Shown here: in pieces, positions 16,380-47,030 of the stretch
Layout of the letters: every line of letters starts with the position of its first letter
Position numbering within the stretch: position 1 is the first letter of the stretch
Assembly (NCBI GenBank): GCA_005882045.1
Contig: VBHO01000010.1
Span: forward strand, 680 to 64,679
DNA: 64,000 bases
Source: Chloroflexota bacterium
GTDB lineage: Bacteria; Chloroflexota; Dormibacteria; CF-121
Direction: 5' to 3'
Program-made: the position numbers and the translations under genes
Notes under the pieces: generated by a model
Database searches by the model: none
Told to the model about the DNA's origin: nothing
What the model saw: the letters and a program-made list of their open reading frames with translations, nothing else

Positions 16380-16455
16380 TGGAGCGGGAGACGAGACTCG
16401 AACTCGCGACTCCGACCTTGGGAAGGTCGTACTCTACCAACTGAGTTACTCCCGC
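16380..16455 (-). tRNA. tRNA-Gly (anticodon CCC), encodes 3' CCA.
   Basis: Folded by hand on the minus strand: acceptor GCGGGAG/CTCCCGC, D-arm ACTC-AGTTGGTA-GAGT, anticodon stem CGACC/GGTCG with loop TTCCCAA (U33, CCC, A37), T-arm GCGAG-TTCGAGT-CTCGT, discriminator U, CCA. Confidence 0.9.
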
Positions 16456-31658: not shown

Positions 31659-31669
31659 GATCGAAGAGT

Positions 31670-32335: not shown

Positions 32336-32399
32336 CCTTGCGGTATAACCGGCCGGCGGAGCCGACCTTGCAGCGGTCGAATACAGGTTGTATTCGCGG

Positions 32400-32804
32400 C
32401 TAGTGAGTCCGCGCGCTCACGTACTGGCGAACCTTGTCCCGCAGCCTCGGCAGGGGATCGGTCTTCAGGAAGTACTCGTCGCAGCCCGCCCGTCGCGCTT
32501 CCTCGGGCGTCGCCATGCCGGCGGTGTAGACGATCACCTTGATGCCGGCCGAGTACTCGCTAGACCGGATCTTCCGGCACAACTGCAGGCCGTCGAGGCC
32601 CGGCATCTGGATGTCGGCCACCACCACCGACGGCTGCCACTCGAGGCAAAGGCGCCAGGCCTCGTCACCGTCCTTGGCCTCCATCACCTCGTGACCATCC
32701 AGCTCGAGGAGCGTCCGTAACATGGTCCGGACATCGCGGTCGTCATCCGCCACGACCACTGGGGGAAAATCGCTGCCGGGAACAGACGCTGGGACACTAC
32801 TCAT
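32400..32804 (-). CDS. Stand-alone response-regulator receiver domain (CheY-like).
   Basis: VVVADDDRDVRTMLRTLLELDGHEVMEAKDGDEAW...VVVADIQMPGLDGLQLCRKIR...IKVIVYTAG. No output domain. Confidence 0.8.
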   Translation of the reverse strand: MSSVPASVPGSDFPPVVVADDDRDVRTMLRTLLELDGHEVMEAKDGDEAWRLCLEWQPSVVVADIQMPGLDGLQLCRKIRSSEYSAGIKVIVYTAGMATPEEARRAGCDEYFLKTDPLPRLRDKVRQYVSARTH

Positions 32805-32867
32805 CGGAGTCCCCTCCTCGCCATTCCATTCGAAATTCTAGGTCGGATGTCTATCAGACAGCAAGGG

Positions 32868-34073: not shown

Positions 34074-34086
34074 GGGCTCTATCCTC

Positions 34087-35370
34087 TCATGGCGTTTTGA
34101 GCCCTTGCTTGAGGGCGACGAACTCCAGGCGCTGCAGCAGGATGTCGATCACGCGTTGCCAGGTGTAGTCACGCGCGGTCCGCTGCGCGGCGATCCGCAG
34201 GTTGCGCGCGGCTTCCGGGCGGGCGGCCAGGTTGGTGACATAGGCGACGATCTCCGCCGCGTCCTCGGTCTCGATCACGATCGCGTTCTTGAAGGGCTGG
34301 GCGTATTCCTCGCCCGTGGCCCCGACGAAGGCGACGCCGCCGGAGGCCATCGCTTCCAGGCCGACCAGGCCGAACGGCTCGTGGCCGCTGTTGGCCAGGG
34401 TCGCGGTGGCCGAGGCGTAGAGCACCGGGAGTAAGTCGTCAGGCAGAAACGCCGTCACGTTCCAGATGTCGGCGTCGGCATGCTCCTTGAGCGCGCTCGC
34501 CAACCCCGCCACGTCCTCGATCCGGGTGGAGAGCGGCGCCACGCGCAGGCCGCGTTGCCTGGCAAAGTCCAGCACCTCACCACCGAACGGCTCCAGTCCG
34601 CCCCGCATTAGCAGCCGTGCCCCGATCCGACGATCCTTCAACTGGGCGACCGCGGCGATCGCCTGGTGCCAGCGCTTGTCGGGACTGAACCGCCCGATCT
34701 TGAAGAGGAAGGCGGGGACGGCCACCGCGGCGCGAACCGCCCGCACCTGCGCCTGGCTGACCCGCGCCATCATCGACCCGGGGATGCCGTTGGGCACCAC
34801 GATCGGGTTCACCCCCCAGCGCCACATGATGTGCTTCATGTAGCGGCTTACCGTCATCAGCGTGGCGACGAAGCCGAGTTGGCCCCAGTTGATGCGGTTG
34901 AACGAGAAGTGGTTGTTGGCGTTCCACAACAGCAGGCAGCGATCGCGGAGCCCGGCGAAATAGAGCGCGTCCGAGATCAGCGACATGGCGTGCGCGATGT
35001 GCCACTCCTCGCCAAGCACCACCACCGTGTGGCCGCGCGCGATCGCCGGCTTGATGTAATCCTTGACCAGCGCGTCGGGCAGGCTGCGGTTCAGGTCCGC
35101 CACCTTGTCGTCCTCGCCGTCGTAGACGCCCACCGGGTGATAGCGGCTGATCCACTGGCTCCAGCGATGGAGCCAGAGCCGGCCATCGAGGGCGCTCTCG
35201 TGCGCCGGGAGCGTCGGATCACCAACGAAGAACAGGTGGGTCTCGAAGCCGCGTTCCGCCAGGGCACGGGAGAGCTCCTTCACCCGCACGCCGAGCCCGC
35301 CGGCCTGGGAATAGACATCCGGGCCTTCGAAGGAGAGGATGATGAAGGTCGTCTGCTCTGGCTCGAGCAT
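34087..35370 (-). CDS. GT4 glycosyltransferase, sucrose-phosphate-synthase-like (sugar-phosphate glycoside synthase family).
   Basis: N-terminal FIILSFEGPDVYSQAGGLGVRVKELSRALAERGFETHLF resembles the SPS/GT4 N-domain. C-terminal GT4 E-x7-E region (SGHEPFGLVGLEAMASGGVAFV). Confidence 0.65.
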   Translation of the reverse strand: MLEPEQTTFIILSFEGPDVYSQAGGLGVRVKELSRALAERGFETHLFFVGDPTLPAHESALDGRLWLHRWSQWISRYHPVGVYDGEDDKVADLNRSLPDALVKDYIKPAIARGHTVVVLGEEWHIAHAMSLISDALYFAGLRDRCLLLWNANNHFSFNRINWGQLGFVATLMTVSRYMKHIMWRWGVNPIVVPNGIPGSMMARVSQAQVRAVRAAVAVPAFLFKIGRFSPDKRWHQAIAAVAQLKDRRIGARLLMRGGLEPFGGEVLDFARQRGLRVAPLSTRIEDVAGLASALKEHADADIWNVTAFLPDDLLPVLYASATATLANSGHEPFGLVGLEAMASGGVAFVGATGEEYAQPFKNAIVIETEDAAEIVAYVTNLAARPEAARNLRIAAQRTARDYTWQRVIDILLQRLEFVALKQGLKTP

Positions 35371-36197
35371 CAGGGCACCCGCTCCCCCACCAGCTGGCGG
35401 GCAAAGGCATGGACCTGCGCGGAGAGTGACGCCAGCACGGTCGTCCTCGAATCGAGGCGCACCGAAACGCCCTCCAGCGGATCCCCGTCGTAGTCGGTCG
35501 CGACCCCGCCAGCCTCCCGGAGGATCAGCAGCGGCCCGGCCAGGTCGAAGGCGCGAACCGGCGCGGGCGTCGCCTGGAGTGCAACGCCGCCGGCTGCCGT
35601 GTGGCAGAGGTTCAGCGCCGCCGAGCCAAGCTGGCGGACCTTTTCCGCCTTCGCGAAGATGGCCGCGGCGCGTTCGCGCGGCTCGACGCCGCTGGGGGCA
35701 TCGAACGAAACCAGCGGAATTGACCGACCATCGAAGGCGGCCGGACTCGGCTGGAGCGGCTTCCCATTTCGAAAGGCGCCGGCGCCCTCGATCGCGTGGA
35801 ACTCGTCGGCGGTCACCAGGTTCTGGACGTAGCCGAGGCGCACCTCCCGGAATCGGTCACCCTCGGTGACAGCCAGCACGACGGCATAGTACGGCAGTCC
35901 CATTTTGGCGTTGACGCTGCCGTCCAGGGGGTCGCAAAGGACGAGCGCCGAGCCACCGAAGTCACGTTCGCCGAGCTCTTCCGAGATCAAGTGAAAACGC
36001 AAACCGCTGCGATAGGCTTGCTCCAGGTGGCGCACGACAATCCCTTCGGCGAGCTGGTCGAGATAGATCGTCCGGTCGCCGCCCGCGCCAAGGCCGACCA
36101 CCTCGCGGCCGCGCACCGTGCCCGCCAGGGGCACGATCTCGGCGCGGATCTCCGCGGCGATGGCGCGGAAAATCGGAAGCCAGGCTTGTGAAGTCAC
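35370..36197 (-). CDS. Inositol-monophosphatase/FBPase-family (IMPase-like) phosphatase.
   Basis: Metal-binding motifs ISEELGE and LCDPLDGSVN. C-terminal CHTAAGGVAL (WD-x-AAG-like). Start overlaps the GT4 stop. Confidence 0.7.
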   Translation of the reverse strand: MTSQAWLPIFRAIAAEIRAEIVPLAGTVRGREVVGLGAGGDRTIYLDQLAEGIVVRHLEQAYRSGLRFHLISEELGERDFGGSALVLCDPLDGSVNAKMGLPYYAVVLAVTEGDRFREVRLGYVQNLVTADEFHAIEGAGAFRNGKPLQPSPAAFDGRSIPLVSFDAPSGVEPRERAAAIFAKAEKVRQLGSAALNLCHTAAGGVALQATPAPVRAFDLAGPLLILREAGGVATDYDGDPLEGVSVRLDSRTTVLASLSAQVHAFARQLVGERVP

Positions 36198-37354
36198 TCA
36201 GCGCGACGGCCGGCAAGCCGTTGCGTCGCTATGGTACCCGAACATTAGCGATCGGGGGGCCGATCCCTGATCGAATCCGGCCCTGGCTCGGCCTTCTCCT
36301 CCTGGCCCTGCTGGTCAAGGCGGTGCTCATCGCCCTCACGCTGGTCGAATTCGGCGCGGCGCCCGATCCGCTGACCGCCCTCGGCCGCGCCTGGGACCGC
36401 TGGGACGCGCAGCACTACCTGTACCTCGCTACCCACGGATACGGTGCGACCGGCGATGCGCGCAACCTGATCGCCTTCTTCCCCCTCTATCCGGCGCTGA
36501 TCAGCGCCATCGCGGCGACCGGCCTCCCCGCGCGCACGGCCGCCCTCGTGATCAGCAATGTCGCCGGCGTGGTGGCCGCCATCCTGCTCTATGAGATCGC
36601 TCGGCACGACCTGCGCGAGAACGCCGCCTTTCGGGCCGCCGCCTTCTTCGTCGTCTTCCCGACCGCCTATTTCCTCCTCGTCGGTTACACGGAAGCGCTC
36701 TTCTGCGCACTCGCCTTCGGCGCGGTCCTCGCGGCGCGACGGCAGCGTTGGCTGGTTGCGGGGATGCTAGGAGGCCTCGCCGCCGCCGCCCGCCTCACCG
36801 GGCTCGCGCTGCTCCCGTTTCTCGTGATCGAGCTCTTTTATGCGCGGCGATCGCTGCGCGAAGCGTGGCAGGTGATCCTCGCGCCAGCGTTGATCGTGGT
36901 TGGCTTCCTGACCTACCTTCTGACCAACCTGCTCGTCCTCGGCGATGCCTTCGCCTTCATCAGCGTGCAGCGCCAGCACTGGTCGCATTCGGTAGCGGCG
37001 CCCTGGGTCGGTTTTGCCGAGGCGATCCGGGGCATCAGCTGGCGGGTGCCGTGGGAGAAGCTGACCGTCGGTGGCGGCGAGGCCGCCGGCGGGATCGCGG
37101 CCTATGCGACGACGGCCCTCAGCTGGCTACGGCTCCGGCCATCGGATGCCGCCTACGCCACGGTGCTCACCGTGATGGTGACCTTTCTGCCCTTCTGGCT
37201 GAGCATCCCGCGCTATCTCCTGGCGATGTATCCCCTCTTCCTCCTCGTGGGACGGATCAACCAGCGATGGATCTACCTGGCGATGGTGGCGGTCTCTTTC
37301 GTGAGCCTGATGGTCTTCGGGCTCGCCTTCGGCCGCGGCTACTGGGCCTTCTAG
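36188..37354 (+). CDS. Integral membrane glycosyltransferase, GT-C superfamily (PIG-V/GT76- or DUF2029/GT87-like mannosyltransferase).
   Basis: About 10 TM helices. First-loop motif WDRWDAQHYLYLATHGY typical of GT-C mannosyltransferases. Divergent from the IMPase gene; true start uncertain. Confidence 0.55.
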   Translation: MKSLSATAGKPLRRYGTRTLAIGGPIPDRIRPWLGLLLLALLVKAVLIALTLVEFGAAPDPLTALGRAWDRWDAQHYLYLATHGYGATGDARNLIAFFPLYPALISAIAATGLPARTAALVISNVAGVVAAILLYEIARHDLRENAAFRAAAFFVVFPTAYFLLVGYTEALFCALAFGAVLAARRQRWLVAGMLGGLAAAARLTGLALLPFLVIELFYARRSLREAWQVILAPALIVVGFLTYLLTNLLVLGDAFAFISVQRQHWSHSVAAPWVGFAEAIRGISWRVPWEKLTVGGGEAAGGIAAYATTALSWLRLRPSDAAYATVLTVMVTFLPFWLSIPRYLLAMYPLFLLVGRINQRWIYLAMVAVSFVSLMVFGLAFGRGYWAF

Positions 37355-37812
37355 GCGAGCAACCTGCGCAAGGCCTCGACGTCTTCGTGTAGAACGTGGT
37401 CGTCGATGGGCGGTGGGTCATGTTCAGGGAAAGGAAAGGGCCAGCCCGGCCGGGGATCGTCGGCGTAGCGAGGGATGATATGCGCGTGCAGATGCGGAAG
37501 GGAATTCCCGAGGACGTTGTAGTTCATCTTCACCGGCTTCAGTTGCGTCTCGAGCGCCTGGGCGACGCGGAGCACCTCGAGCCAGTACGCAGACGCATCG
37601 GTTGTCGAGAGTTCCGTCGGCTCGGCGACATGGCGACCGCGCCAGACGACGACCGTGTAACCGCGCTGGATGTTGGCACGCTGCAGGTACGCATCCGACA
37701 CCCGACCCGCGAAGAAGCGCACACCCCACCGTGTCTCATCGGGCCGACCCTGTCGGCACATCTCGCAGCCTTCGCCACGCTTGAGGGCATAGAAAGACGC
37801 CGGCCACTCCAC
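37351..37812 (-). CDS. HIT-family (histidine triad) nucleotide hydrolase/transferase.
   Basis: Histidine triad NSLPHLHAHIIPR. 153 aa. Confidence 0.8.
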   Translation of the reverse strand: MEWPASFYALKRGEGCEMCRQGRPDETRWGVRFFAGRVSDAYLQRANIQRGYTVVVWRGRHVAEPTELSTTDASAYWLEVLRVAQALETQLKPVKMNYNVLGNSLPHLHAHIIPRYADDPRPGWPFPFPEHDPPPIDDHVLHEDVEALRRLLA

Positions 37813-37837
37813 CTGCGAGCCAACCTACCATAGCCCC

Positions 37838-38410
37838 ATGCCCGAGACGCCCGAGCAACTGTACCTTCGTGCCGCGAAAGCGCTGCGCATGCCAGCGGTC
37901 CAGGAGTGGGATACGTTTCCCTTCGACGGTGAGATGCGACCGCGTGCCCTGCAGCCGCCGGGCGAGCATGAGGTGCGCCGGAGCGGCGAAGGCGGAGTCG
38001 ACTGCAAGGCGTGCGCCGCTCCCGACAGCGACTTCCTCTGGACCACGGAGCGCTGGCGTCTTCACAGCCTGCCCAGGCCTTCGGGCCTGCCGGTCATCCT
38101 CTTGCTCCAGCCGCGGGCTCACTACGGAGAACCCGGCGACCTACCGGACGCGATGGCCGCCGAGCTGGGAACCCTTCTGGCCCGCATTGAACGCGCGGTA
38201 CGCAGCATCGACGGCGTTGGACGGGTTCATGTCTGCCGCTGGGGCGACGGCAGCGAGCACCTCCACTGGTGGTTCATGGCGCGTCCCGCACGCTTTCCTC
38301 AGCTGATCGGGAGCTTTGCCGCTATCTGGGACGACGTTCTGCCGGCTACACCGGACAGCATCTGGCGCGACAACCTCGCACTGGTCATCCGCGAATTGAA
38401 TCGCGCCTAG
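37838..38410 (+). CDS. HIT-like protein with degenerate triad (HLHWWF).
   Basis: ...CKACAAPDSDFLWTTERWRL...GDGSEHLHWWFMARP has the HIT topology but the third His is replaced. Divergent from the canonical HIT gene. Confidence 0.5.
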   Translation: MPETPEQLYLRAAKALRMPAVQEWDTFPFDGEMRPRALQPPGEHEVRRSGEGGVDCKACAAPDSDFLWTTERWRLHSLPRPSGLPVILLLQPRAHYGEPGDLPDAMAAELGTLLARIERAVRSIDGVGRVHVCRWGDGSEHLHWWFMARPARFPQLIGSFAAIWDDVLPATPDSIWRDNLALVIRELNRA

Positions 38411-38748
38411 CGGATCAGGTGTGACAGCACGGTGCTGATGATCACGTAGATCACATACCCGATGAGGATCTGGACGAAGCTCAGGTCGAAGTGCACGTTG
38501 AGGATCCCCTGGAGGACCGCAAAGGAGAGCGCGAAGAGCAGCGCGTTGAGGACGATGATGAACAACCCGAGCGTCAAGATGGTGACGGGAAGGGTCAGGA
38601 TGAGGAGCACCGGCCGGATGATGGTGTTGACCAGCGCCAGGATCACGGCCATGACGATGGCCGCACCGAGAATGCTGGAGTGAATGTGCCAGATGAAATA
38701 AAAGACGAATAGCAGGGCGACGATGTGGATCAGGAAGCGCGTCAGCAC
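38407..38748 (-). CDS. Small 4-TM membrane protein, phage_holin_4_2 (PF04020)-like.
   Basis: MLTRFLIHIVALLFVFYFIWHI...AIVMAVILALVNTIIRPVLLILTLPVTILTLGLFIIVLNALLFALSFAV matches the mycobacterial 4-TMS holin-like family pattern. Last gene of the minus-strand operon. Confidence 0.55.
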   Translation of the reverse strand: MLTRFLIHIVALLFVFYFIWHIHSSILGAAIVMAVILALVNTIIRPVLLILTLPVTILTLGLFIIVLNALLFALSFAVLQGILNVHFDLSFVQILIGYVIYVIISTVLSHLIR

Positions 38749-38757
38749 GCGGACATT

Positions 38758-40725
38758 CTATCCGGGCGGGACCGCGTAGATCTGGTAGCTCGCAGTATGC
38801 AGCACCAGTCGGAAGGTGGTGTTGAAGTAGTCAAGATTCGGACGAAGCGTCGTCATCTCATTCGGACCGACGACAACGTAATCGGCATGATATTGATGCA
38901 ATAAATCAAGGGCGGTTGCGCCGCCAGCGTAGATTCGCTGGATATCCGCTTCGCGGCGCGTGTAGTTGATGCCGTAGCTCCACAGCCAGCCTGGATAGCT
39001 CATCAGCACCGAACGTCCGGCGAGGTCGGCAATCGGGTTGTTCGGTTGCTCGCCGGTGACGAAGACCGCCTTCGGTGGCGTCTGTTGCCGCACCTGAGCC
39101 GCCAGCTGCACCTCCTCGTTCGTGAACCAGACGTAGGCCGGGCCCTGGGGCGGCAGGAATTGCAGCAGCGACAGCACGCCAGACCCAACCAGGCTCAGCC
39201 AGATCGCGGCCGCGACCACGGCGCCGGCCAGGTGCGCGCGCGCCAGCCGGACGAGCACGGCCTCGACGGCGACCGCACTCGCCATGTACCAGAAGACCAG
39301 CAGTTTGCTGTTGTCCCAGTCCCAGGGTTGAAACTTGATGAGGTTGGCCACAAGGAACACCAGGCTGAAGGGCGCGATCAGCAGGCGCATCCGCCCCCGC
39401 AAGGCCAGCGGACTCAGCAGGGCGAGCAGCAGGAGCGGCCAGAACAGCCCCGTGTTCTTGATCCAGAACCAGGGCGGGAAGTCCGTGCCCGATACCCAGC
39501 CGATCAGCCACCGCGGGTACTGGTGATCGGGCGGCGCGCCGGGATCCCCCGGCACCGCCATCAGCAGTCGCGGCACGGCCAGCACCGCCATGACGGCGAA
39601 GAACCCGAGCCACGCCGGCCGCGGAAAGAGCAGCGCCCAGCAGACGGTCACGATGCCGAGCACGACCAGGCTGTGCACGTGGAAGAGGGGCAGCACGCCC
39701 GTCAGCCCGCCGGCGGTAAGGAAGGCAACGGCGTCGCTCTTGATCGTCCAGCGCCGCCACGACCGACGGATGGCGTCGATGGTTTCGCGCCAACGGAAGA
39801 ACGGCGTCGTCAGGAGTGGCGGCGTCAACAGCAGCAACACCGCCATCACGATCGCCGCGCCGAAGACGAACGATCGCTGCGGGAGGTAGTAGGAGAGAAT
39901 CGGGTTGTACCACTGGATATTGACCGGCGGATCGAATCGGTCGTAGCTGCGCGGAATATGCAGCAACGTATCGAGCAGCCCCAGTCGTGCCGCATCGCCA
40001 AAAAAGAACCAGAATCCGACCCCGCCCCCCAGCAAGGTCAGCGTGACCGCGATGACGCCGGCAGCGGTCCCGCCCGTGAGCCGCCGCGCCCAGAAGATCA
40101 GTCCGCTGAGCGCGAGCACCGTCATTCCCAGGCTCGGCCAGGCTAGCGCGGCCGGGATGGTCCATCCGCCCGCGACCAACAGGGCGCTGGCAAAGTCCGG
40201 CGCAAACGTGTATCGGAACGGCGTCCCCGCGAAGATCGGATTCTGCGGCGGCAGGTTGTGGCCGTAGACGAAGGTGGTCGTGTAGCTGGCGTGGAACGAC
40301 CAGTCGGACCAGGTGTTGTTGTAGTGCGCCATCCAGGCGTCGGGGGTTACCTCCACCGCCCGGAGGAAGAGGTAGCCCATGGTCAGCGCGACAACGGCGA
40401 TCGCGACGGCGACGGATATTGTGGCGGGCTGGGCCCATGGCCGCGTGGCCGCCGCGGAACGGAGCCGCGGGAGGTGGCGCCATAGCTGGAATCCGCCGGC
40501 CGCCAATCCGAGTAGCGCCAGCAGGAGGACGAGCCCACCGGTGACCCCTAACGCGAGCGCGAGCACATAGCCCAGCAGCGTGAGCCCCACCACCGCCAGC
40601 ACGATGCCGATCACCGCGCGCTCGCCCCACGTCAGCCAGGGCGGCCCACCGGCGGCCAGGCCGAGCCCGAGGATGAGACAGCCGGCGACGAGCGCTAGCC
40701 CGGGGAAGTCCAGTAGCAGAGGCAC
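38758..40725 (-). CDS. 655-aa polytopic membrane protein, possible GT-C-type glycosyltransferase or polysaccharide polymerase (unassigned family).
   Basis: More than 12 predicted TM helices with large loops. No motif I can assign. Co-operonic with PMT. Confidence 0.45.
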   Translation of the reverse strand: MPLLLDFPGLALVAGCLILGLGLAAGGPPWLTWGERAVIGIVLAVVGLTLLGYVLALALGVTGGLVLLLALLGLAAGGFQLWRHLPRLRSAAATRPWAQPATISVAVAIAVVALTMGYLFLRAVEVTPDAWMAHYNNTWSDWSFHASYTTTFVYGHNLPPQNPIFAGTPFRYTFAPDFASALLVAGGWTIPAALAWPSLGMTVLALSGLIFWARRLTGGTAAGVIAVTLTLLGGGVGFWFFFGDAARLGLLDTLLHIPRSYDRFDPPVNIQWYNPILSYYLPQRSFVFGAAIVMAVLLLLTPPLLTTPFFRWRETIDAIRRSWRRWTIKSDAVAFLTAGGLTGVLPLFHVHSLVVLGIVTVCWALLFPRPAWLGFFAVMAVLAVPRLLMAVPGDPGAPPDHQYPRWLIGWVSGTDFPPWFWIKNTGLFWPLLLLALLSPLALRGRMRLLIAPFSLVFLVANLIKFQPWDWDNSKLLVFWYMASAVAVEAVLVRLARAHLAGAVVAAAIWLSLVGSGVLSLLQFLPPQGPAYVWFTNEEVQLAAQVRQQTPPKAVFVTGEQPNNPIADLAGRSVLMSYPGWLWSYGINYTRREADIQRIYAGGATALDLLHQYHADYVVVGPNEMTTLRPNLDYFNTTFRLVLHTASYQIYAVPPG

Positions 40726-42338
40726 CAGTTGGGTAGCGGCTTGGTCAGGGCAAACCAGACGTGGCTGTTCAGGGCCTCGCCCGTGAGCGGCAGCCCGGTC
40801 CAGAGCGGATAGAAGTAGATGAAGAAGCCGATCACCATCACCAGGTAGGCATAGGCGGGCACCGCCCCATTGAAGCGGACCGCCATCCCGGGCAGGCGAC
40901 CGGAGAGCGTACGGAGATAGGTGAGCGCAAGCGACAGGGCGAGGAACATCGCCGGTAGCCCGCCCAGCATGTGGTAAAGGAAGAGCCCGCGTGGCACCCG
41001 CGAGAGCGGCAGCCAGGCGCTAAAGAACGAGACGAGGATGAAGATCGAGGCATAGAGGCGCTGGTCCGTAGGTCCTGCCGCAGCGCGCCGCGCCGCTTCC
41101 GCTGGATCGAGCTCGCGCCGAAAGCGATGGTCGCGGATCAGCGCCGGCAATCCAATCGCGATCCCCGCGATCGAAAAAGTCGCCGCCCACCAGATCAGCG
41201 GATTACCCAGGTTGAAAATTTCCGCGACCAGCGTCGAGCCGCTGGATTGATCGACGCCGAGCCCCTGGCCCGCGTAGTAGTAGACGACCGGCCGGAAGTC
41301 GAGCGGCCAGGACCACCAGGGGCTGTAGAAGATGTGGTCCGCTTTGAGATTGATGTGGTAGAGCCAGGTCTGCCGGTGCCATTCCGCGATCTCGGTCCAG
41401 GCCGCACCGGGGTTGACGTGGAAGGGCGCGAAGCCGAGTGCCGGCTGCGGTAGGTTCGTGATTCCGTGGGTGATGGTGACGTAACGGATGAAGGTCAAGC
41501 CGTAAACGATCGCCGGCAACAGGGCGAGGCTGAGCAGTGCGATGCCGGCGGTGGCGCTGTCGTAGCGGGTCCAGCGAACGATCAGGCGAAAGACGAGGAT
41601 CACGATGATGACGCCGTAGGCGGCCAGCGTCGTCCACTTGGCGCCCAGCGCGAGGCCGAGCGTGATGCCGGTGAGCACGATCATCCAGCGCCGTCGAGTC
41701 ACCGTGTCGGCGTTGAGGTGGAGGTGGAACAGCAGATACGCCAGCACCACGAGCGTGATCGGGATGATGTCGATCACGGCCGTGCGCGCCTCGACGAAGG
41801 TCATGCCGTCGAAGGCGGTGAGCACGCCGGCGGCGATCGCGAAGAACCGCACGGACAGTAGCTGGCGGGCGAGCAGGTACATCAGGGGGATCAGCGCCGT
41901 GCCGAAAAGCACCGGCATGAAGCGCCAGCCGAAGGAGTTGAATCCGAACAGCTTGATCCCGATCGCGATCATCAGCTTGGCGAGCGGCGGCTCGGGATCG
42001 AAGTAGTCCTGGCCCAACAGGTCCTTGTTGGCATCGTTGGCGAAGTAGAGCTCGTCGAACACGAAGGGAGAGTTGGGTGCGATGTCGTTCGGTTTGCCCA
42101 GCCCCGCAATCGATGGATCCTGGTAGTTGTGCCCGATACCCCAGGCACTGACGGGCGACGCTGATCCGGGGTGGGCAAAGATGTCGAGAAAGATCGGGCT
42201 GGCGAAGCGAAGCATGCCCGCGACCAGCGTCAGGGCAATCAGCCAGTAGAGGTCGGTGCGGTCGAGGCGCCACCACGCGGCGCGCGAAACTCGCCGGGTC
42301 AATGCGGTCGGAGCCTTAAGTGTTGGCCCCGCTTGCAT
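40695..42338 (-). CDS. pmt: Dolichyl/polyprenyl-phosphate-mannose protein O-mannosyltransferase (PMT family, GT39).
   Basis: First-loop DE motif VFDELYFA, with polytopic topology (ALIPLMYLLAR...). Start chosen at internal ATG 42338, forming an ATGA overlap with the upstream gene stop. The 712-aa ORF-track entry is an over-extension. Confidence 0.75.
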   Translation of the reverse strand: MQAGPTLKAPTALTRRVSRAAWWRLDRTDLYWLIALTLVAGMLRFASPIFLDIFAHPGSASPVSAWGIGHNYQDPSIAGLGKPNDIAPNSPFVFDELYFANDANKDLLGQDYFDPEPPLAKLMIAIGIKLFGFNSFGWRFMPVLFGTALIPLMYLLARQLLSVRFFAIAAGVLTAFDGMTFVEARTAVIDIIPITLVVLAYLLFHLHLNADTVTRRRWMIVLTGITLGLALGAKWTTLAAYGVIIVILVFRLIVRWTRYDSATAGIALLSLALLPAIVYGLTFIRYVTITHGITNLPQPALGFAPFHVNPGAAWTEIAEWHRQTWLYHINLKADHIFYSPWWSWPLDFRPVVYYYAGQGLGVDQSSGSTLVAEIFNLGNPLIWWAATFSIAGIAIGLPALIRDHRFRRELDPAEAARRAAAGPTDQRLYASIFILVSFFSAWLPLSRVPRGLFLYHMLGGLPAMFLALSLALTYLRTLSGRLPGMAVRFNGAVPAYAYLVMVIGFFIYFYPLWTGLPLTGEALNSHVWFALTKPLPNWCLCYWTSPG

Positions 42339-42883
42339 CAGCTCGATTGGCCGCGCAGCCGGCCCTTGATCTGCGCCACGAAATCGTCGACGCCGACGAT
42401 CGGGATCACGATGTCCGCGCCGGCAACCAGACGCGGGCCGAGCTGTCGTTCGGCCGTTTCGATCAGGTCGGCCCGACGGCGGTCGAGCCGGATGTAGGCG
42501 GCGGGCCCACGCCCCAGCCGGCGGACGAAACGGTTGACGAAGCGACGCCGTTCCGCTGGCTGGAAGGCGACCTCGAGCGGTTGGCGGCGGACCCGCGCCA
42601 GCGCGGTGTAGGGCAGCTCGATGTGACGCAGCAGGTAGCGGATCTGGAGCCCATCGTTCGACACGTCGATGTAGGAAATCCGCTGCATCAGCCAGAAGGC
42701 GACAAGAACGACGCCGTCGAGGACCGTGACCGGAATAAAGGAAACGATCGACTGGTGCTGGACCTGCTTGATGACGATCAGCACCACCAGGATGATGAAA
42801 AAGCCGCCGTAGAACCACTTGCCGTCGTTCCAACGCTGGACCGAATAGAGGATCGGATAGCGGCGCCGCGTCGTGTCGCTCAT
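42338..42883 (-). CDS. Membrane-anchored bacterial PH-domain protein (bPH_2/DUF304-like).
   Basis: Two N-terminal TM helices followed by a bPH_2-like segment (...IRYLLRHIELPYTALARVRRQ...IRLDRRRADLI). ATGA-coupled to both neighbouring genes. Confidence 0.55.
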   Translation of the reverse strand: MSDTTRRRYPILYSVQRWNDGKWFYGGFFIILVVLIVIKQVQHQSIVSFIPVTVLDGVVLVAFWLMQRISYIDVSNDGLQIRYLLRHIELPYTALARVRRQPLEVAFQPAERRRFVNRFVRRLGRGPAAYIRLDRRRADLIETAERQLGPRLVAGADIVIPIVGVDDFVAQIKGRLRGQSS

Positions 42884-43977
42884 CGCGCCACGCGGACGGT
42901 CCCGGTGCGTTCCATCAGGTGGTCGGCGCCCTCGAAGTAGGTGTCGAGATTGGGCTGCTGCTGCAACCATTGCCAGTACTCGCGGACCATCGCCTCCAGG
43001 CCGGACTGCGCCTCCCACCCCTCAGCCTTCAGCCGGCTGACGTCCGGAACGACATGTCGCGGATCCCCCACGCGGTAGCGGCCCGGCGTCTCCGGGGCGA
43101 GGTCGCGCTCGGCGATGCGCAGAAGGGTGCGCGCGAGGTCGATCACCGCGTGGGCGCGGCCGGTGGCCACGTTGTAGGCGCCGGGCGGCAATCCGGTGAT
43201 GGCCGCCAGGTTGGCGCGCGCCACGTCCTCGACATCGACGAAATCGCGCAGCTGGTTGCCGTCCTCGAGCAGCAACGGGGCTTGACCGTGCGCCAGGCGG
43301 AGCGCAGCGATTCGGAGCGCGCCGTAGTACGCGTTCTGAAACGGTTGGCCCTTTCCCTGGACGGCGCCATAACGCAGGATGACCCACTCGATGCCATGCC
43401 GGTCGCCCAGCAACCGAACCAGGTCTTCCTGCGCTAGCTTGCTGAGACCGTAGGCGCTGGTCGGCCGGGTGACCGACTCATCGGTGATCATCGGCGTGAT
43501 CGCGCCGCCGCAAATCGGACAGGGCGGATCCCAGACGCCGCGCTCGAGGACGTCCACCCGGCGCGGCAGCGGGTAAACGTCGCCATCCTTGCCGCATCGA
43601 TACTTGCCCTCGCCGTAGACCGCCGTCGTCGATCCCAGCACGATCCGCCGCACCGATGTCTTTCCCTCGAGTAGAAGCTCGAACAGGATGGCGGTGCCGA
43701 CGGCATTGATGTGAAACAGCTTGCTGAATGACGGCAGGTAGTCGTGGTAGTCGGCGAGATGCACGACCACCTCGTTCTCCTTCAGCGCCTTGACCCAATC
43801 CTCACGCTTGCGGATGTCGCCCTCGACCAGCTCCATCCCGGCGGGTAGCGCCGGCGGGCCATCGTGGGCGGGTGGCGAGAGGTTATCGAGGACCGTGACC
43901 TGGTGCGCCTGCTTGAGAAGAAGCTGGCCGGTGCGCTGACCAATGAAACCGGCCCCGCCGGTGATCAGCACCCTCAT
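42880..43977 (-). CDS. NAD-dependent epimerase/dehydratase (SDR, UDP-hexose 4-epimerase-like) with a Cys-rich insertion.
   Basis: Rossmann motif MRVLITGGAGFIG and catalytic YxxxK (SAYGLSK). Insertion YRCGKDGDV...PPCPICGG has four Cys arranged as a zinc ribbon. Confidence 0.75.
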   Translation of the reverse strand: MRVLITGGAGFIGQRTGQLLLKQAHQVTVLDNLSPPAHDGPPALPAGMELVEGDIRKREDWVKALKENEVVVHLADYHDYLPSFSKLFHINAVGTAILFELLLEGKTSVRRIVLGSTTAVYGEGKYRCGKDGDVYPLPRRVDVLERGVWDPPCPICGGAITPMITDESVTRPTSAYGLSKLAQEDLVRLLGDRHGIEWVILRYGAVQGKGQPFQNAYYGALRIAALRLAHGQAPLLLEDGNQLRDFVDVEDVARANLAAITGLPPGAYNVATGRAHAVIDLARTLLRIAERDLAPETPGRYRVGDPRHVVPDVSRLKAEGWEAQSGLEAMVREYWQWLQQQPNLDTYFEGADHLMERTGTVRVAR

Positions 43978-44102
43978 TGCTGGGGACTATAGCTGACGCT
44001 CGATCGAGCCCCGATCCATTCCCGTGACAGCGCCGTTACGGCCCCTTCACTGGTCCTTAACAGTGCCACCGATATCGTGATCCCCGCTTCCCCTTCCTTG
44101 AA

Positions 44103-44137
44103 GGCCGAGACCCCAATCTCGGCCTTTCTTCTTTTTT
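44103..44137 (+). terminator. Intrinsic terminator-like hairpin + T-tract, plus-strand oriented.
   Basis: GGCCGAGA-CCCCAA-TCTCGGCC perfect 8-bp stem followed by TTTCTTCTTTTTT. No plus-strand CDS lies upstream. Confidence 0.5.
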
Positions 44138-44153
44138 GCGCCCGGCGCTTGGG

Positions 44154-44954
44154 TCACATCCGGGCCCCCTCGAGCGCGCGCTGACAGTTGCAACTCGGGG
44201 TGGTTGGGATGATCGGGATCAGGGTGGCCAGCAGGTCGCGAACCCGGCTGATGTTGCCGCCCAGCACGCGCATCACGTCGTGCGCTTGAACGGCCGCCAC
44301 CTCGGGCGCTTCCTCGAGCCCGGCATCGTAGTCGGTCACCAGCGAGAGGTTGAGGTAGCACATCTCCAGCTCGCGCGCCAGGATCACCTCTGGGTACTGG
44401 GTCATGCCCACGATGTCCCAGCCCATTCGACTGAACCAGCGGCTCTCGGCTCGCGTCGAGAAGCGCGGCCCCTGCACCACGACCACGGTTCCCGAAGGTT
44501 GAAACCGCAGCGATTGTTGTTCCGCGATGCGACCGGCCAGCGAACGCAGCTCCGGACAGTACGGGTCGGCGGCGCTGATGTGAACGACATCGGGTCCCGG
44601 ATAGTAGGTGTCCGCTCGACCGGTGGTGCGATCGAAGAACTGGTCACAGATCACCAGGTCTCCCGGATGCAGGTCAGGCTTCAGGCTGCCCACCGCGGAC
44701 GGGCCGACGATCCGCTTGACGCCAAGTTCGTGCATGGCCCAGACGTTGGCGCGGAAGTTGACGAAGGGCGCGGAGACCTCGTGGTTGGGTCCATGACGCG
44801 GCAGAAACGCCACGCTGCGTCCCCCAAGCTCGGCCAGCGCGATCGACCCGCTGGGTGGGCCATAGGGCGTCGCGATCTCGATCTCGTCGGCGGCGTCGAG
44901 CCACTCGTAGAAGCCGGACCCGCCGAAAATGCCGATCTCCGCCGTGGGCGACAT
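44154..44954 (-). CDS. mtnP: 5'-methylthioadenosine / purine nucleoside phosphorylase (MTAP family).
   Basis: N-terminus IGIFGGSGFY, ...RHGPNHEVSAPFVNFRANVWAMHELGV..., MTQYPEV. About 266 aa. Confidence 0.85.
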   Translation of the reverse strand: MSPTAEIGIFGGSGFYEWLDAADEIEIATPYGPPSGSIALAELGGRSVAFLPRHGPNHEVSAPFVNFRANVWAMHELGVKRIVGPSAVGSLKPDLHPGDLVICDQFFDRTTGRADTYYPGPDVVHISAADPYCPELRSLAGRIAEQQSLRFQPSGTVVVVQGPRFSTRAESRWFSRMGWDIVGMTQYPEVILARELEMCYLNLSLVTDYDAGLEEAPEVAAVQAHDVMRVLGGNISRVRDLLATLIPIIPTTPSCNCQRALEGARM

Positions 44955-45751
44955 CAGCTCCGGACGTGGCCGCGTGGCGAGACCTGTTCAGCGTAGCGAG
45001 CGAGGTCGTTGATGCGCGGCTGCGAGGAGCACACCGGGCAGTCGGCGTCGCGCGGAAACCTGGTGATGCGGGTGTCGCCGCGCAGGCCATCGTGCTGAAA
45101 GATGCGGCCGCTCAGCGGCGTGCCCACGTTGAGAATCACCTTCAGCGCTTCCTCCGCCTGCACGCTTCCGACGACGCCGGTCGCCGCCCCGATGATGCCG
45201 GCCTCCTCGCAGGTTTCGATATCGGCGTCTTGGGGGGGATCGCGGAAAAGGCAGCGCAGACACGGTCCGTCAGGGAGCACCGTCGTGACCTGGCCGCCCC
45301 AGCGCAGGACTGCGCCATGCACCAGCGGTTTGCGAAGCAGGACGGCCGCATCGTTCAAGAGGAACTTCGTCTCGAACGAATCAGTGGCATCGACGACGAC
45401 GTCGTACTCCGCCACAATGGCCTCCACGTTCGATGCGCGAACGTTCTCCTGGCGAGCATCCAGCCGGAGGGCGGAGTCGAGGATCAGTAGTCGGCCGGCC
45501 GCCGCTTCGACCTTGGGCCGGCCCACGTCACAGTCCTCGAAGAGGATCTGCCGGTTGAGATTCGAGAGTTCAACCTGCTGGTCGTCGATCAGGCCGAGCC
45601 TCCCCACCCCGGCCGCCGCCAGGTAGAGGGCGACGGGCGAACCCAAACCCCCGAGGCCGACGATCGCGACCGAGGCACGTTCGAGCCGCTGCTGCCCGGC
45701 CTCGCCGACCTCAGCGAGGATGCGTTGACGATGATGCCGCTCGGCGGTCAT
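44954..45751 (-). CDS. ThiF/MoeB-family E1-like adenylyltransferase with CxxC...CxxC zinc motif (no rhodanese domain).
   Basis: HHRQRILAEVGEAGQQRL...VAIVGLGGLGSPVALYLAAAGVG (glycine-rich ATP loop). CLRC ... CPVC. Confidence 0.8.
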   Translation of the reverse strand: MTAERHHRQRILAEVGEAGQQRLERASVAIVGLGGLGSPVALYLAAAGVGRLGLIDDQQVELSNLNRQILFEDCDVGRPKVEAAAGRLLILDSALRLDARQENVRASNVEAIVAEYDVVVDATDSFETKFLLNDAAVLLRKPLVHGAVLRWGGQVTTVLPDGPCLRCLFRDPPQDADIETCEEAGIIGAATGVVGSVQAEEALKVILNVGTPLSGRIFQHDGLRGDTRITRFPRDADCPVCSSQPRINDLARYAEQVSPRGHVRS

Positions 45752-46566
45752 CGGCGTCCCTCCGCCGCCGCGGCGACGGCGCGGTAATCGGCGAGCGATG
45801 TGATGCTGGGTCGGTCACCACAGGTTGGACACGCGGGATTGCGACGGTAGCGCACCTCACGAAAGGTCATCGCCATGGTGTCGTGCAGCAGCACGCGGTT
45901 CACCAGCGGCTCGCCCGTACCCGTGATTTGTTTGATGGTCTCGGCGGCCTGGATGGTGCCGATGATGCCGGGTAGCGCGGCCAGGACTCCGACCTGTTCG
46001 GATTCTTCGATCGCGCCGGCCGGTGGCGGTTCCGGATAGAGACACCGATAGCAGCCACGACCCGGGGTGAAGACCGTCACCTGCCCCTCGATGCGAAAGA
46101 TGCTGCCGTGCACCAGCGGCTTGCGCAGCAGGTAGGCGGTATCGCTGAGCAGGTAGCGGGCACGGAAAGTGTCCGTGCCATCGACGATCACGTCGTAGCG
46201 TTGCAGCAGCTCCATCGCGTTGTGTTCGTCGACGGTGGCCTCGACCGCGTCGACCTTGATACCAGGATTCAAGCCGCCGACGGTTCGCGCCGCACCGTCG
46301 ACTTTGGAACGGTTCAGTCCCGCCATCGAATGGATCACCTGTCGTTGCAGGTTCGAGAGCCGGACGTGGTCGTGGTCGGCGAGACCGATGGTGCCCACGC
46401 CCGCCGCTGCCAGGTAGAGCGCCACCGGCGAACCGAGCGCGCCGACGCCCACGATCAGCACGCTCGAGCGCAGCAGTCGCCGCTGACCGGCGGGCCCGAT
46501 CTCAGCCAGCGCCAGATGGCGGGCGTACCGCTGTCGCTGTTCGGCCGTCAGCGATGCCTCGGACAT
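45748..46566 (-). CDS. Second ThiF/MoeB-family E1-like adenylyltransferase (tandem paralog).
   Basis: RYARHLALAEIGPAGQRRL...VLIVGVGALGSPVALYLAAAGVG. CYRC ... CPTC. ATGA overlap with the downstream paralog. Confidence 0.8.
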   Translation of the reverse strand: MSEASLTAEQRQRYARHLALAEIGPAGQRRLLRSSVLIVGVGALGSPVALYLAAAGVGTIGLADHDHVRLSNLQRQVIHSMAGLNRSKVDGAARTVGGLNPGIKVDAVEATVDEHNAMELLQRYDVIVDGTDTFRARYLLSDTAYLLRKPLVHGSIFRIEGQVTVFTPGRGCYRCLYPEPPPAGAIEESEQVGVLAALPGIIGTIQAAETIKQITGTGEPLVNRVLLHDTMAMTFREVRYRRNPACPTCGDRPSITSLADYRAVAAAAEGRR

Positions 46567-47030
46567 TACGCGCCCCGCGGCTTGGCCGGCACGGCGTGAA
46601 AGATGCCGTGGAAGACCTGCGGCTGCGCCCGCCGCAAGCGAAGGCAGTCGGCCAGGGTATGCGCGGCGAAGACATCGCGCGCGGCCTGCTCGGCTTTCTC
46701 GGTGACCTGCGCCAGCACGCGGCTGTCTCCGGTCTCCGCTCCGTCCGGCTGGCGGCTCCTCACGCCGTCACCCTCGAGGCAGGCGATGACTTCGTCGAGA
46801 CGGATGTCTTCCGGGCTGCGGGCCAGCACATGTCCGCCGTGCGGGCCGCGGGTCGACTGCACCAGGCCGGCGCGGCGCAGCGTCATCAGCACCTGGTCAA
46901 GGAACGGCCCGGGGATCACCTGCCGGCGCGCGATCTCGCCGCTTTGCAGCGCGCCCTGTCCAGCATTGGCCGCCAGTTCCACGATGGCCCTGACTCCATA
47001 CTCGGTTTTCATCGACAGGCGCATTCGCAC
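46566..47030 (-). CDS. Rrf2-family transcriptional regulator.
   Basis: N-terminal wHTH MRLSMKTEYGVRAIVELA...SGEIARRQVIPGPFLDQVLMTLRRAGLVQSTRGPHGG. First gene of the MoeB-MoeB-MTAP operon. Confidence 0.75.
   Translation of the reverse strand: MRMRLSMKTEYGVRAIVELAANAGQGALQSGEIARRQVIPGPFLDQVLMTLRRAGLVQSTRGPHGGHVLARSPEDIRLDEVIACLEGDGVRSRQPDGAETGDSRVLAQVTEKAEQAARDVFAAHTLADCLRLRRAQPQVFHGIFHAVPAKPRGA

Follow-up and report, generated by a model that had tools for sequence, protein, structure and literature searches.

The window analyzed here (the whole 64,000-nucleotide stretch of contig VBHO01000010.1) contains an operon of five co-directional minus-strand genes (38407 to 43977), one of which encodes a PMT homolog. 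Bacterial protein O-mannosylation has so far been studied almost only in Actinobacteria, and the locus comes from an uncultured soil bacterium of the phylum Dormibacterota, in which the PMT homolog has unusual partners. We give a somewhat better than even chance to the reading that this locus is a two-GT-C extracytoplasmic O-glycosylation module, most likely on the outer face of the cytoplasmic membrane. From the 5' end, the gene order is epimerase, 181-aa gene, PMT, 655-aa gene, and 113-aa gene, with the following features in and around the operon:

44100 to 44127, no strand: G+C-rich hairpin with an 11-bp stem in the MTAP/epimerase spacer
42880 to 43977, minus strand: epimerase of the GalE-like extended-SDR NDP-sugar 4-epimerase/dehydratase family, 365 aa (PF01370)
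43498 to 43608, minus strand: 37-residue insert of the epimerase (residues 124 to 160), skipped in PDB alignments
42338 to 42883, minus strand: 181-aa membrane protein with two transmembrane (TM) helices and a C-terminal domain (ATG at 42883)
40695 to 42338, minus strand: GT39-type PMT homolog, 547 aa, without MIR domains (PF02366 and PF16192)
42051 to 42056, minus strand: DE motif (D95-E96) of the PMT homolog in VFDELYF, placed by alignment to Pmt1
38758 to 40725, minus strand: 655-aa membrane protein with a predicted GT-C fold; no Pfam or NCBIfam model for its family
38761 to 39138, minus strand: C-terminal alpha/beta domain of the 655-aa protein (residues ~530 to 655), with a resemblance to AglB
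38407 to 38748, minus strand: 113-aa protein with four TM helices (PF04020), last gene of the operon
36188 to 37354, plus strand: neighboring convergent PIG-V/GT87-like GT-C gene, 388 aa (PF04188, 2e-10; PF09594 GT87, 5.9e-4)

The original prediction of five tightly joined minus-strand genes was accurate. The epimerase and 181-aa genes share an ATGA (4-nt overlap), the 181-aa gene and PMT share a TGATG (1-nt overlap), PMT and the 655-aa gene overlap by 31 nt, and a 9-nt gap precedes the 113-aa gene. Translational coupling of the operon genes is supported at the sequence level. Upstream, a 176-nt spacer separates the MTAP gene (stop at 44154) from the epimerase start; its hairpin (plus strand, T-run; minus strand, A-run) is the probable 5' limit of the operon. 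Downstream, the stop of the 113-aa gene overlaps that of a convergent gene (37838 to 38410). A search of 37300 to 44400 for a sigma-70-like promoter found none, which is uninformative for this phylum, and an Rfam scan returned a distant tRNA alone and no RNA element within the operon.

The PMT homolog, whose start (ATG at 42338) is backed by the N termini of its homologs, scored above the Pfam gathering thresholds of both PF02366 (5.3e-20; 72.4 bits; cutoff, 22.7) and PF16192 PMT_4TMC (1.1e-23; 84.3 bits; cutoff, 32.4). When it was aligned to yeast Pmt1 (6p25) and Pmt4, D95-E96 paired with D77-E78 of ScPmt1 (in VFDEVHF, first external loop), R185-x4-D190 (EL2) aligned with ScPmt1 D189, and R450-x2-F453 (EL5; R-x2-Y/F motif) aligned with ScPmt1 R649/F652. 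All six residues (D95, E96, R185, D190, R450, and F453) were invariant in 15/15 Dormibacterota PMT sequences, both lineages of the phylum being covered. The counterparts in MtPMT are D74-E75, D176 (Rx4-6D), and R441/Y444, and D74, D176, R441, and Y444 are essential by mutagenesis (PMC12331936). The predicted PMT homolog with a DE motif is therefore present with its remaining catalytic residues, including the loop 5 pair (R450xxF453), the loss of which would have spoken against the prediction. By sequence, it is a genuine GT39-type enzyme that keeps all four residue groups essential in M. tuberculosis, and activity is predicted. Its score against the NCBIfam equivalog of actinobacterial Pmt (NF058602; 75.9 bits; cutoff, 800) makes it a family member and not an equivalog; the acceptor and the sugar could therefore differ from those of actinobacterial Pmt. 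The protein also matches ArnT weakly.

Searches of Pfam, NCBIfam, and PDB with the 655-aa protein, as a single sequence and as a profile, gave nothing usable; weak profile hits to triosephosphate isomerase were dismissed as chance. An AF2 model built from an alignment of 42 family sequences (~30% identity) reached a pLDDT of 94.5 and a pTM of 0.95 (a shallow alignment at 70 to 91% identity gave a pLDDT of 59). The best Foldseek matches of the model were STT3, DPY19, AglB, PglB, and ArnT (E, 3e-7 to 7e-5). Judged by the model, the protein has a multi-TM GT-C core fold, and we predict a second GT-C glycosyltransferase that belongs to an unclassified family; the earlier guess of an accessory or second-step transferase fits this prediction. 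Ten residues were invariant in the 42 sequences (D141, H145, Y172, G237, R284, G339, N424, N472, K474, and G570), and D471 was nearly so. D141-x3-H145 is placed in the predicted first external loop, in the helix that follows TM helix 100 to 123. The C-terminal domain is predicted to be extracytoplasmic and is similar to the globular domain at the C terminus of AglB, the archaeal oligosaccharyltransferase.

The protein nevertheless differs from STT3/AglB/PglB and from the C-mannosyltransferase DPY19. Neither it nor its family matched the STT3 Pfam or TIGR models, and TM-scores against the oligosaccharyltransferases (STT3/AglB/PglB) and DPY19 were only ~0.4. Its WDWDN stretch (residues 468 to 472) lies between TM helices and is followed by two more, unlike WWDYG, which opens the soluble domain. 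An identity as STT3, AglB, or PglB was thus rejected, the likeness being one of fold and C-terminal domain only. A paralogous pair of the Pmt1/Pmt2 kind was likewise rejected, as the 655-aa and PMT families showed no profile-level homology (hhalign probability, 2.9%). A 1093-aa ORF in Chloroflexia (locus L076) was considered as a possible fusion between a PMT-like domain and the 655-aa family; its N-terminal 467 aa had no Pfam match, so that a fusion is unsupported, and the length of the ORF may be due to crude ORF picking. The 655-aa protein did not match TIGR03662 or DUF2298 (PF10060) at an E value of ≤0.1; 5 of its 42 relatives matched TIGR03662 (best, 2.6e-12), and 2 matched DUF2298 (3.2e-6). 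At the sequence level, the family is a related but separate branch beside Chlor_Arch_YYY/DUF2298. A literature search on DUF2298 returned nothing relevant.

The start of the 181-aa protein (ATG at 42883) is backed by homologs of 181 aa. A basic N terminus is followed by TM helices at ~23 to 41 and 45 to 63 and then by an Arg-rich C-terminal domain of ~115 aa. The original prediction of a membrane-flanked PH domain of the PF03703 bPH_2 type needs revision on both counts: both helices precede the domain, which is not flanked on both sides, and no bPH model was significant on the window protein (best, bPH_7; E = 0.056; 13.4 bits, below the cutoff of 25). Among its relatives, 7/15 matched PF10756 bPH_6 instead (best, 2e-5), and PF10756 was precomputed on relatives P0364 (75% identical) and P0376 (73% identical). 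The C-terminal domain is probably a bPH_6-type bacterial PH domain on the cytoplasmic side. In the divergent lineage, the C terminus of the family members is a GGGRRRKRRR tail. The window protein had no match in PHROGs.

Conserved synteny, on which the original prediction depended, was found in both deep Dormibacterota lineages. The order bPH-PMT-GT-C was observed in 29/29 orthologous loci and in 21 of ~28 divergent Dormibacterota loci; in the other seven, PMT-GT-C is there but no bPH match passed the coverage filter, in several of them because the contig is cut. The triad proteins of the two lineages are 25 to 39% identical, and since no isolate occurs in both locus sets, the two sets are orthologs and not paralogs. 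The conserved core across the phylum is the bPH-PMT-GT-C triad only. The epimerase and PF04020 genes are lineage-specific additions outside this core: they are limited to the lineage of the window, and the divergent lineage has the triad without them; there, MTAP or a kinase directly abuts the bPH gene. Their functional link to the triad is therefore weaker.

The PIG-V/GT87-like gene is a third GT-C within 7 kb and is syntenic in the lineage of the window. A GT4 gene and an inositol monophosphatase (IMPase)-family gene are also syntenic neighbors, and the GT4/IMPase/GH57 genes form a separate transcription unit with the appearance of glucan or compatible-solute metabolism. Neither a GT2 polyprenyl-phosphate sugar synthase (PF00535) nor GtrA (PF04138) was found in the operon, in the ~20-kb syntenic neighborhoods, or in ten further ORFs of the window. 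Given that GT2 is missing from the operon and from within ~10 kb of the syntenic loci, the locus by itself does not provide a complete donor supply. The dedicated sugar-donor supply proposed originally is not upheld, as the locus has no GT2 synthase and the divergent lineage has no epimerase.

Outside Dormibacterota, members of the 655-aa family mostly have no neighboring GT39 gene (27 loci), and partnership with PMT is therefore not obligatory for the family. In 10 acidobacterial loci, a homologous ~636-aa gene directly follows the 655-aa family member. The one member tested (L060) overlaps the 655-aa family gene and encodes a PMT-like protein with a DE motif that belongs to the TIGR03663/Agl23 family.

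The epimerase matched PF01370 (3.7e-40) and, below the cutoff, TIGR01179 GalE (126 bits; cutoff, 262). Its closest PDB relatives were 6wjb/6wj9 (NAD-dependent epimerase/dehydratase family) and the GalE entries 4zrm and 2p5u. A Rossmann GGAGFIG (GxxGxxG) and a YxxxK (Y176-K180) motif could be read from the sequence. The insert at 124 to 160, which has no counterpart in solved epimerases, contains C128-x2-D131 and C153-x2-C156, kept in 22/22 distinct ortholog sequences. The protein has three Cys in total (C128, C153, and C156), and the insert described originally as Cys4 is in every ortholog three Cys plus an Asp (CxxD…CxxC). This conserved, lineage-specific insert suggests that the epimerase is specialized and not housekeeping. 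The 113-aa protein has four hydrophobic segments and matched PF04020 (1.2e-16; 61.7 bits; cutoff, 28.8), as anticipated. Its earlier label, holin-like, comes only from the name of the Pfam family (Phage_holin_4_2, "mycobacterial 4-TMS phage holin"): PHROGs gave no family at an E value of ≤0.01, and no lysis genes lie nearby, the neighbors being glycosyltransferases and HIT-like genes.

The absence of these two genes from the lineage that otherwise keeps the triad, together with the direct abutment of MTAP on the bPH gene in L039, speaks for a possible reading that we rate as somewhat unlikely. Only the triad would be functional, and the epimerase (general UDP-hexose metabolism) and the PF04020 protein (a small membrane protein with a stress-related role, as for B. 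subtilis YvlD) would be co-transcribed passengers. PF04020 is not known to be linked to glycosylation; a literature search on PF04020/YvlD found no such link and nothing else relevant. Against this reading, both genes accompany the triad in every orthologous locus, at identities down to 57 to 67% and in >23 species, with the ATGA epimerase/bPH junction and a spacing of 9 to 34 nt before the last gene retained, and the epimerase has its conserved insert.

In the two-GT-C module that we prefer, PMT would use a polyprenyl-phosphate sugar as the donor and attach its hexose, presumably mannose, to Ser/Thr of exported proteins, with D95 as the putative catalytic base and R450/F453 holding the donor phosphate. 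We infer that the 655-aa GT-C works with PMT, either as its partner subunit in a heteromeric complex, the place that Pmt2 has beside Pmt1 and Rv0051 beside mycobacterial Pmt, or by adding the next sugar, or both. The bPH protein would serve this pair as a cytoplasmic-side scaffold or regulator. The epimerase, gained upstream in the lineage of the window, probably makes a nucleotide sugar from which the second transferase's donor is supplied, and the four-TM PF04020 protein, gained downstream, is possibly a small membrane accessory, e.g., a lipid-linked-sugar translocator. All of these functional statements are predictions: the analysis establishes which genes are present, their coupling and conserved order, the catalytic residues, and the fold, and from these the acceptor, the sugars, complex formation, and the roles of the bPH, epimerase, and PF04020 proteins are deduced. 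A literature search on mannosyltransferases in Dormibacter returned nothing relevant.

The 655-aa protein could instead be a non-catalytic PMT partner that acts as a scaffold or recruits acceptors, as in the case of Rv0051/ML2687c, a GT87-like protein that is catalytically dead. The AglB-like domain of the 655-aa protein would then cap the active site of PMT, a role that MIR domains or the Rv3212 beta-propeller have elsewhere. The mycobacterial Pmt complex provides a precedent, the 31-nt overlap with PMT suggests stoichiometric co-expression, and the C-terminal domain has the resemblance to AglB. We nevertheless consider this unlikely: D141, H145, R284, N424, N472, and K474 are invariant at ~30% identity, and the general lack of an adjacent GT39 gene is as expected of a self-sufficient enzyme and not of a degenerate partner. 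Finally, it is quite improbable that both GT-Cs build or decorate an envelope glycolipid or polysaccharide (like ArnT, AftA/AftB, EmbC, and PimE) rather than proteins, perhaps with the syntenic PIG-V/GT87-like, GT4, and IMPase-family genes; the low Pmt equivalog score and the weak ArnT match would suit such a role, but the two Pfam domains specific to GT39 and all four catalytic groups, the EL5 RxxF among them, are present in PMT, the 655-aa model matches protein-modifying GT-Cs best in Foldseek (STT3, DPY19, AglB, and PglB), the GT4/IMPase/GH57 genes belong to their other transcription unit, and, to our knowledge, all characterized GT39 enzymes modify proteins.

The locus overturns nothing known. 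It presents a different, operon-encoded set of PMT partners (a GT-C family without a model plus a bPH membrane protein), phylum-wide in Dormibacterota. The 655-aa GT-C family comprises thousands of sequence clusters, and the locus offers a first functional lead for this large unannotated family of membrane proteins; bPH, PMT, and the 655-aa GT-C are a concrete candidate three-protein complex that can be tested. A broader proposal, which we consider unlikely, is that the 655-aa protein founds a new protein-modifying GT-C family with an OST/DPY19-like layout and an AglB-like C terminus, each member being the obligate partner of a PMT-like GT-C with a DE motif, namely GT39 in Dormibacterota and Agl23/TIGR03663 in Acidobacteria, Chloroflexi, and Archaea. 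The pairing of two unlike GT-Cs in a single complex would then represent an ancient, generally used solution for extracytoplasmic O-glycosylation, the operon would be its most compact genetic form, bPH scaffold included, and the long-unexplained Chlor_Arch_YYY/DUF2298 superfamily would gain a function.

Among known systems, the three-component systems (GtrA/GtrB/GtrC; ArnC/ArnEF/ArnT) share with the operon GT-Cs that presumably act on a polyprenyl-phosphate sugar and a co-encoded small four-TM protein. The operon differs in having two GT-Cs and not one, in lacking a GT2 synthase in and around it, and in a four-TM protein that is PF04020 and not GtrA or SMR-like. In the Pmt1-Pmt2 heterodimer (PDB 6P25/6P2R), two GT-C subunits are likewise proposed to cooperate, and the window PMT residues align with Pmt1; those subunits are paralogs with MIR domains, whereas the second GT-C here shows no profile-level homology to PMT and has an AglB-like domain.

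Actinobacterial Pmt (GT39; M. tuberculosis Rv1002c) resembles the window PMT in its lack of MIR domains and in its DE motif, EL2 Asp, and EL5 RxxY/F, although the equivalog score marks the two as distantly related. The need of Pmt for a second GT-C and accessory subunits was reported only in 2026: mycobacterial Pmt co-purifies with a second, GT87-like GT-C (Rv0051), a small cytoplasmic-side scaffold (the DivIVA-like Rv1209), and a periplasmic cap (the beta-propeller Rv3212), and Paenibacillus has GT39-GT87 fusions (bioRxiv 10.64898/2026.07.15.738315). Common to that complex and the locus are a GT39 enzyme, a second protein of predicted GT-C fold, a small protein with a domain on the cytoplasmic side (probably so in the window), and an extracytoplasmic domain that could cover the active site. 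The second GT-C of the window is, however, not GT87-like but from a family without a model, with putative catalytic residues kept; the small partner is a two-TM protein, probably of the bPH type, and not DivIVA-like; the locus has no beta-propeller subunit; and the partners lie in one operon, whereas the locus tags in the preprint (ML0192c, ML0810c, ML1065, and ML2687c) are far apart.

In Archaea, Chloroflexi, and other groups, the Chlor_Arch_YYY (TIGR03662)/DUF2298 proteins paired with TIGR03663 (Agl23, "flippase activity-associated protein") are a further parallel. For Agl23, a connection to hexose-P-dolichol, through either its use or its flipping, has been reported (PMC11182771). The window 655-aa protein matches neither model, and its partner is a true GT39 PMT and not Agl23. 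Relatives of the protein do match TIGR03662 and DUF2298, and an acidobacterial family member adjoins the PMT-like, DE-motif Agl23 protein; a theme of a YYY-like GT-C plus a PMT-like GT-C therefore recurs, and through this locus the 655-aa GT-C family is connected with the YYY–Agl23 gene pairs of Archaea and Chloroflexi.

The window (G+C ~65%) encodes proteins that match those of soil MAGs at 98% identity. These MAGs carry the labels Chloroflexi or Candidatus Dormibacteraeota/Dormiibacterota, and we therefore assign the window to the candidate phylum Dormibacterota (AD3). All five minus-strand genes of the original prediction are real, with their coordinates confirmed within 38407-43977.

The five genes of the operon, in order of transcription.
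42880-43977, minus strand: epimerase, 365 aa
42338-42883, minus strand: small membrane protein (bPH-like), 181 aa
40695-42338, minus strand: PMT (GT39 protein O-mannosyltransferase), 547 aa
38758-40725, minus strand: polytopic protein (GT-C membrane glycosyltransferase fold), 655 aa
38407-38748, minus strand: four-TM protein (PF04020), 113 aa

Longer upstream extensions of two ORFs (226 aa and 712 aa) were rejected because homologues and gene callers use the ATGs at 42883 and 42338. Going down the operon, the first two junctions are ATGA and TGATG (1-nt overlap); the PMT and 655-aa genes then overlap by 31 nt, and 9 nt separate the last two genes. The operon is preceded by a 176-nt spacer with a strong hairpin (44100-44127), 27 nt past the stop of an MTAP-like gene, and at its 3' end the stop of the PF04020 gene overlaps that of a convergent gene. 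Given these flanks and junctions, the five genes look like a single transcription unit. The hairpin has an 11-bp stem followed by a T-run on the plus strand (CTTCTTTTTT), where no plus-strand gene ends; on the minus strand, an A-run precedes it. It may act as a terminator, either bidirectional or lacking a U-tract, between the ThiF-ThiF-MTAP genes and the operon.

To compare neighborhoods, we drew on data with one genome per species, retrieved 79 loci with a relative of the 655-aa protein (the best 80 of 519+ family loci were considered), and ran tblastn with the window genes over 85 loci, i.e., these 79 and six found separately. In 29 of 29 orthologous Dormibacterota loci (57 to 91% identity), every one of the five genes within contig reach was kept, in order, and the gene calls of the six separately found loci showed the same overlaps. 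Approximately 28 further Dormibacterota loci encoded a more divergent 655-aa homologue (33 to 37% identical), each with a PMT (32 to 39%) directly upstream. A bPH protein (25 to 34%) preceded the PMT in 21 of these; for the remaining seven, the coverage filter left no bPH hit, in several cases because of a cut contig. The tblastn search detected neither the epimerase nor the PF04020 gene in the ~28 divergent loci, and the bPH gene was abutted instead by a PP-loop ATPase, an FGGY kinase, or MTAP. Since no isolate was common to both sets while ThiF/MTAP neighbors were, the loci of the two sets are positional orthologues from two deep lineages. Synteny holds in both lineages for the bPH-PMT-GT-C triad, which is the conserved unit; the window's lineage has added the epimerase and PF04020 genes to it.

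Upstream of the triad, both lineages keep two tandem ThiF/E1-like genes (44954-47030 in the window; mutually 46% identical), which in the window are preceded by an Rrf2-family regulator. The PP-loop ATPase added in the divergent lineage suggests a sulfur-transfer or adenylation pathway. In Candidatus Dormibacter inghamiae (locus L072, 9754-11193), the triad is followed by a further PMT_2-family GT-C (PF13231, 6.3e-15), which also matches archaeal STT3 and TIGR03663, though weakly.

The identification of the PMT with its DE motif was upheld. The protein scored above threshold for both GT39 Pfam domains, and alignment with yeast Pmt1 (6P25) placed D95-E96 at D77-E78, R185-x4-D190 at D189, and R450-x2-F453 at R649/F652. 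These are also the positions of D74, D176, R441, and Y444 of the Mycobacterium tuberculosis PMT, which are essential by mutagenesis (PMC12331936). All of these window residues were invariant in 15 PMTs sampled from both Dormibacterota lineages. The protein lacks MIR domains, as does actinobacterial Pmt, and its score for the NCBIfam Pmt equivalog was only 75.9 bits (cut-off, 800). It is a divergent GT39 member rather than an orthologue of the enzymes studied so far.

The 655-aa protein had no sequence match in Pfam, NCBIfam, or PDB. An exhaustive HMMER search nevertheless retrieved 2,880 representatives of 50%-identity clusters at an E value of <=1e-3 (776 at <=1e-30), so that the family is large and without a curated model. 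Among 42 relatives, five matched TIGR03662 (Chlor_Arch_YYY; best, 2.6e-12) and two matched DUF2298. An AlphaFold2 model built from the 42-sequence alignment (pLDDT, 94.5; pTM, 0.95) ranked STT3, DPY19, AglB, and PglB at the top in Foldseek (E value, about 1e-6; TM-score, about 0.4). One triad component is a member of a large unannotated GT-C family. The possibility that it is a recent PMT paralogue was rejected (hhalign probability, 2.9%). D141, H145, Y172, G237, R284, G339, N424, N472, K474, and G570 are invariant in the family and D471 is nearly so; D141 and H145 lie within WSDWSFH in the first external loop. This pattern is compatible with an active enzyme.

Outside Dormibacterota, the family is independent of GT39: none of 27 loci from other phyla (Acidobacteria, Chloroflexia, Thermomicrobiales, CPR, and Verrucomicrobia) had an adjacent co-directional PMT homologue. 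In 10 acidobacterial loci (L060, L042, L047, L061, L066, L069, L070, L071, L075, and L082), a homologous gene of ~636 aa comes immediately after the family member. In L060 (1336-5245), the sole member tested, this ORF overlaps the family gene; its product is PMT_2-like, has a DE motif, and matches TIGR03663 (flippase activity-associated protein Agl23; 1.1e-69). In TIGRFAMs, TIGR03663 is described as co-occurring with TIGR03662, often as the neighboring gene. Five of the ten loci adjoin the housekeeping genes rpsB-tsf-pyrH-frr. A TMEM260-like O-mannosyltransferase family gene lies nearby in a Thermomicrobiales locus, and a CPR locus has a YfhO-like GT-C.

The 181-aa protein had been described as a membrane-flanked bPH_2 domain. 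The kind of domain is probably right, whereas the family and the layout are not: a basic N terminus and two TM helices are followed by an Arg-rich C-terminal domain. Seven of 15 family members matched bPH_6 (best, 2e-5), the window protein alone reached only E=0.056 against bPH_7, and close homologues have PF10756 as a precomputed annotation and are named "Bacterial PH domain" by JGI. The divergent-lineage proteins end in GGGRRRKRRR, which by the positive-inside rule places the C-terminal domain of the family on the cytoplasmic side. This ending belongs to a near-identical polybasic tail (G-Q-N-x-G-G-G-R/K-R-R-K-R-R-R) in all divergent-lineage members (loci L031-L083) that is absent from the window's lineage.

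The epimerase is a GalE-like extended SDR (PF01370) whose best PDB relatives are NAD-dependent epimerase/dehydratase family proteins (6wjb/6wj9) and GalE entries (4zrm and 2p5u). Its 37-residue insert (124-160) has no counterpart in solved homologues. The proposed Cys4 site was wrong, as the whole protein contains three cysteines; the conserved pattern, C128xxD131…C153xxC156, makes a putative Cys3-Asp metal site possible. A GalT (galactose-1-phosphate uridylyltransferase) N-terminal-domain gene (19704-20471, minus strand; PF01087, 2.1e-15) lies ~20 kb away. The last operon gene is a clear PF04020 member. It had no PHROGs relative and no lysis genes in its context; "holin" is thus the name of its family rather than its function.

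Downstream, two divergently oriented HIT-like genes, one matching PF01230 (37351-37812, minus strand) and one without a Pfam hit but with an H-L-H-W-W motif and CxxC (37838-38410, plus strand), separate the PF04020 gene from a PIG-V/GT87-like gene of a GT-C mannosyltransferase family (36188-37354, plus strand). The pair looks like a recent insertion, since the flanking genes are directly adjacent in most relatives (e.g., loci L001, L009, and L012). The PIG-V/GT87-like gene, which converges on the operon and whose position is conserved in the window's lineage, is the third GT-C inside 7 kb. Beyond it, 27954-36197, read by synteny with loci L001-L005, holds genes for an inositol-monophosphatase-family protein, a GT4, and a GH57, together with a 1,234-aa ORF that has homologues in which GH57, GT5, and GT4 domains occur together. 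In some relatives, genes for an S6PP-like HAD phosphatase and for an EamA transporter are inserted here. This cluster looks like alpha-glucan or compatible-solute metabolism. Elsewhere, a HAD hydrolase fused to an aminoglycoside-2''-adenylyltransferase-like nucleotidyltransferase domain (15163-16362, minus strand; PF00702 and PF10706) adjoins a tRNA gene (16383-16455).

Overall, the observation behind the original prediction was largely confirmed, and its interpretation is partly supported. In the window's lineage, the GalE-like epimerase would be the source of an epimerised nucleotide sugar. The PF04020 protein, judged purely from its size and four TM helices, would be an accessory, possibly handling lipid-linked sugar. 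Searches of the operon, of ~20 kb of syntenic sequence around it, and of ten other window ORFs yielded no GT2 donor synthase.

According to a 2026 preprint (10.64898/2026.07.15.738315), three proteins co-purify with mycobacterial Pmt: a second GT-C, which is GT87-like and catalytically dead; a small DivIVA-like scaffold linking the two GT-Cs from the cytoplasmic face; and a beta-propeller located in the periplasm above the active site. GT39 is also fused to GT87 in Paenibacillus (same preprint). Given the GT87-like partner, a link between the PIG-V/GT87-like gene and the PMT system is conceivable. The Dormibacterota triad matches the mycobacterial plan: besides the PMT, it comprises a second GT-C, which carries an extracytoplasmic domain itself, and a small membrane protein whose C-terminal domain is placed in the cytoplasm. 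Because it maps naturally onto this plan, we propose that the triad may form a heteromeric or sequential two-GT-C O-glycosylation module acting on polyprenyl-phosphate sugars. The locus is predicted to be a PMT-based glycosylation system of an already known kind, in which the partner set of the PMT is new and conserved across the phylum.
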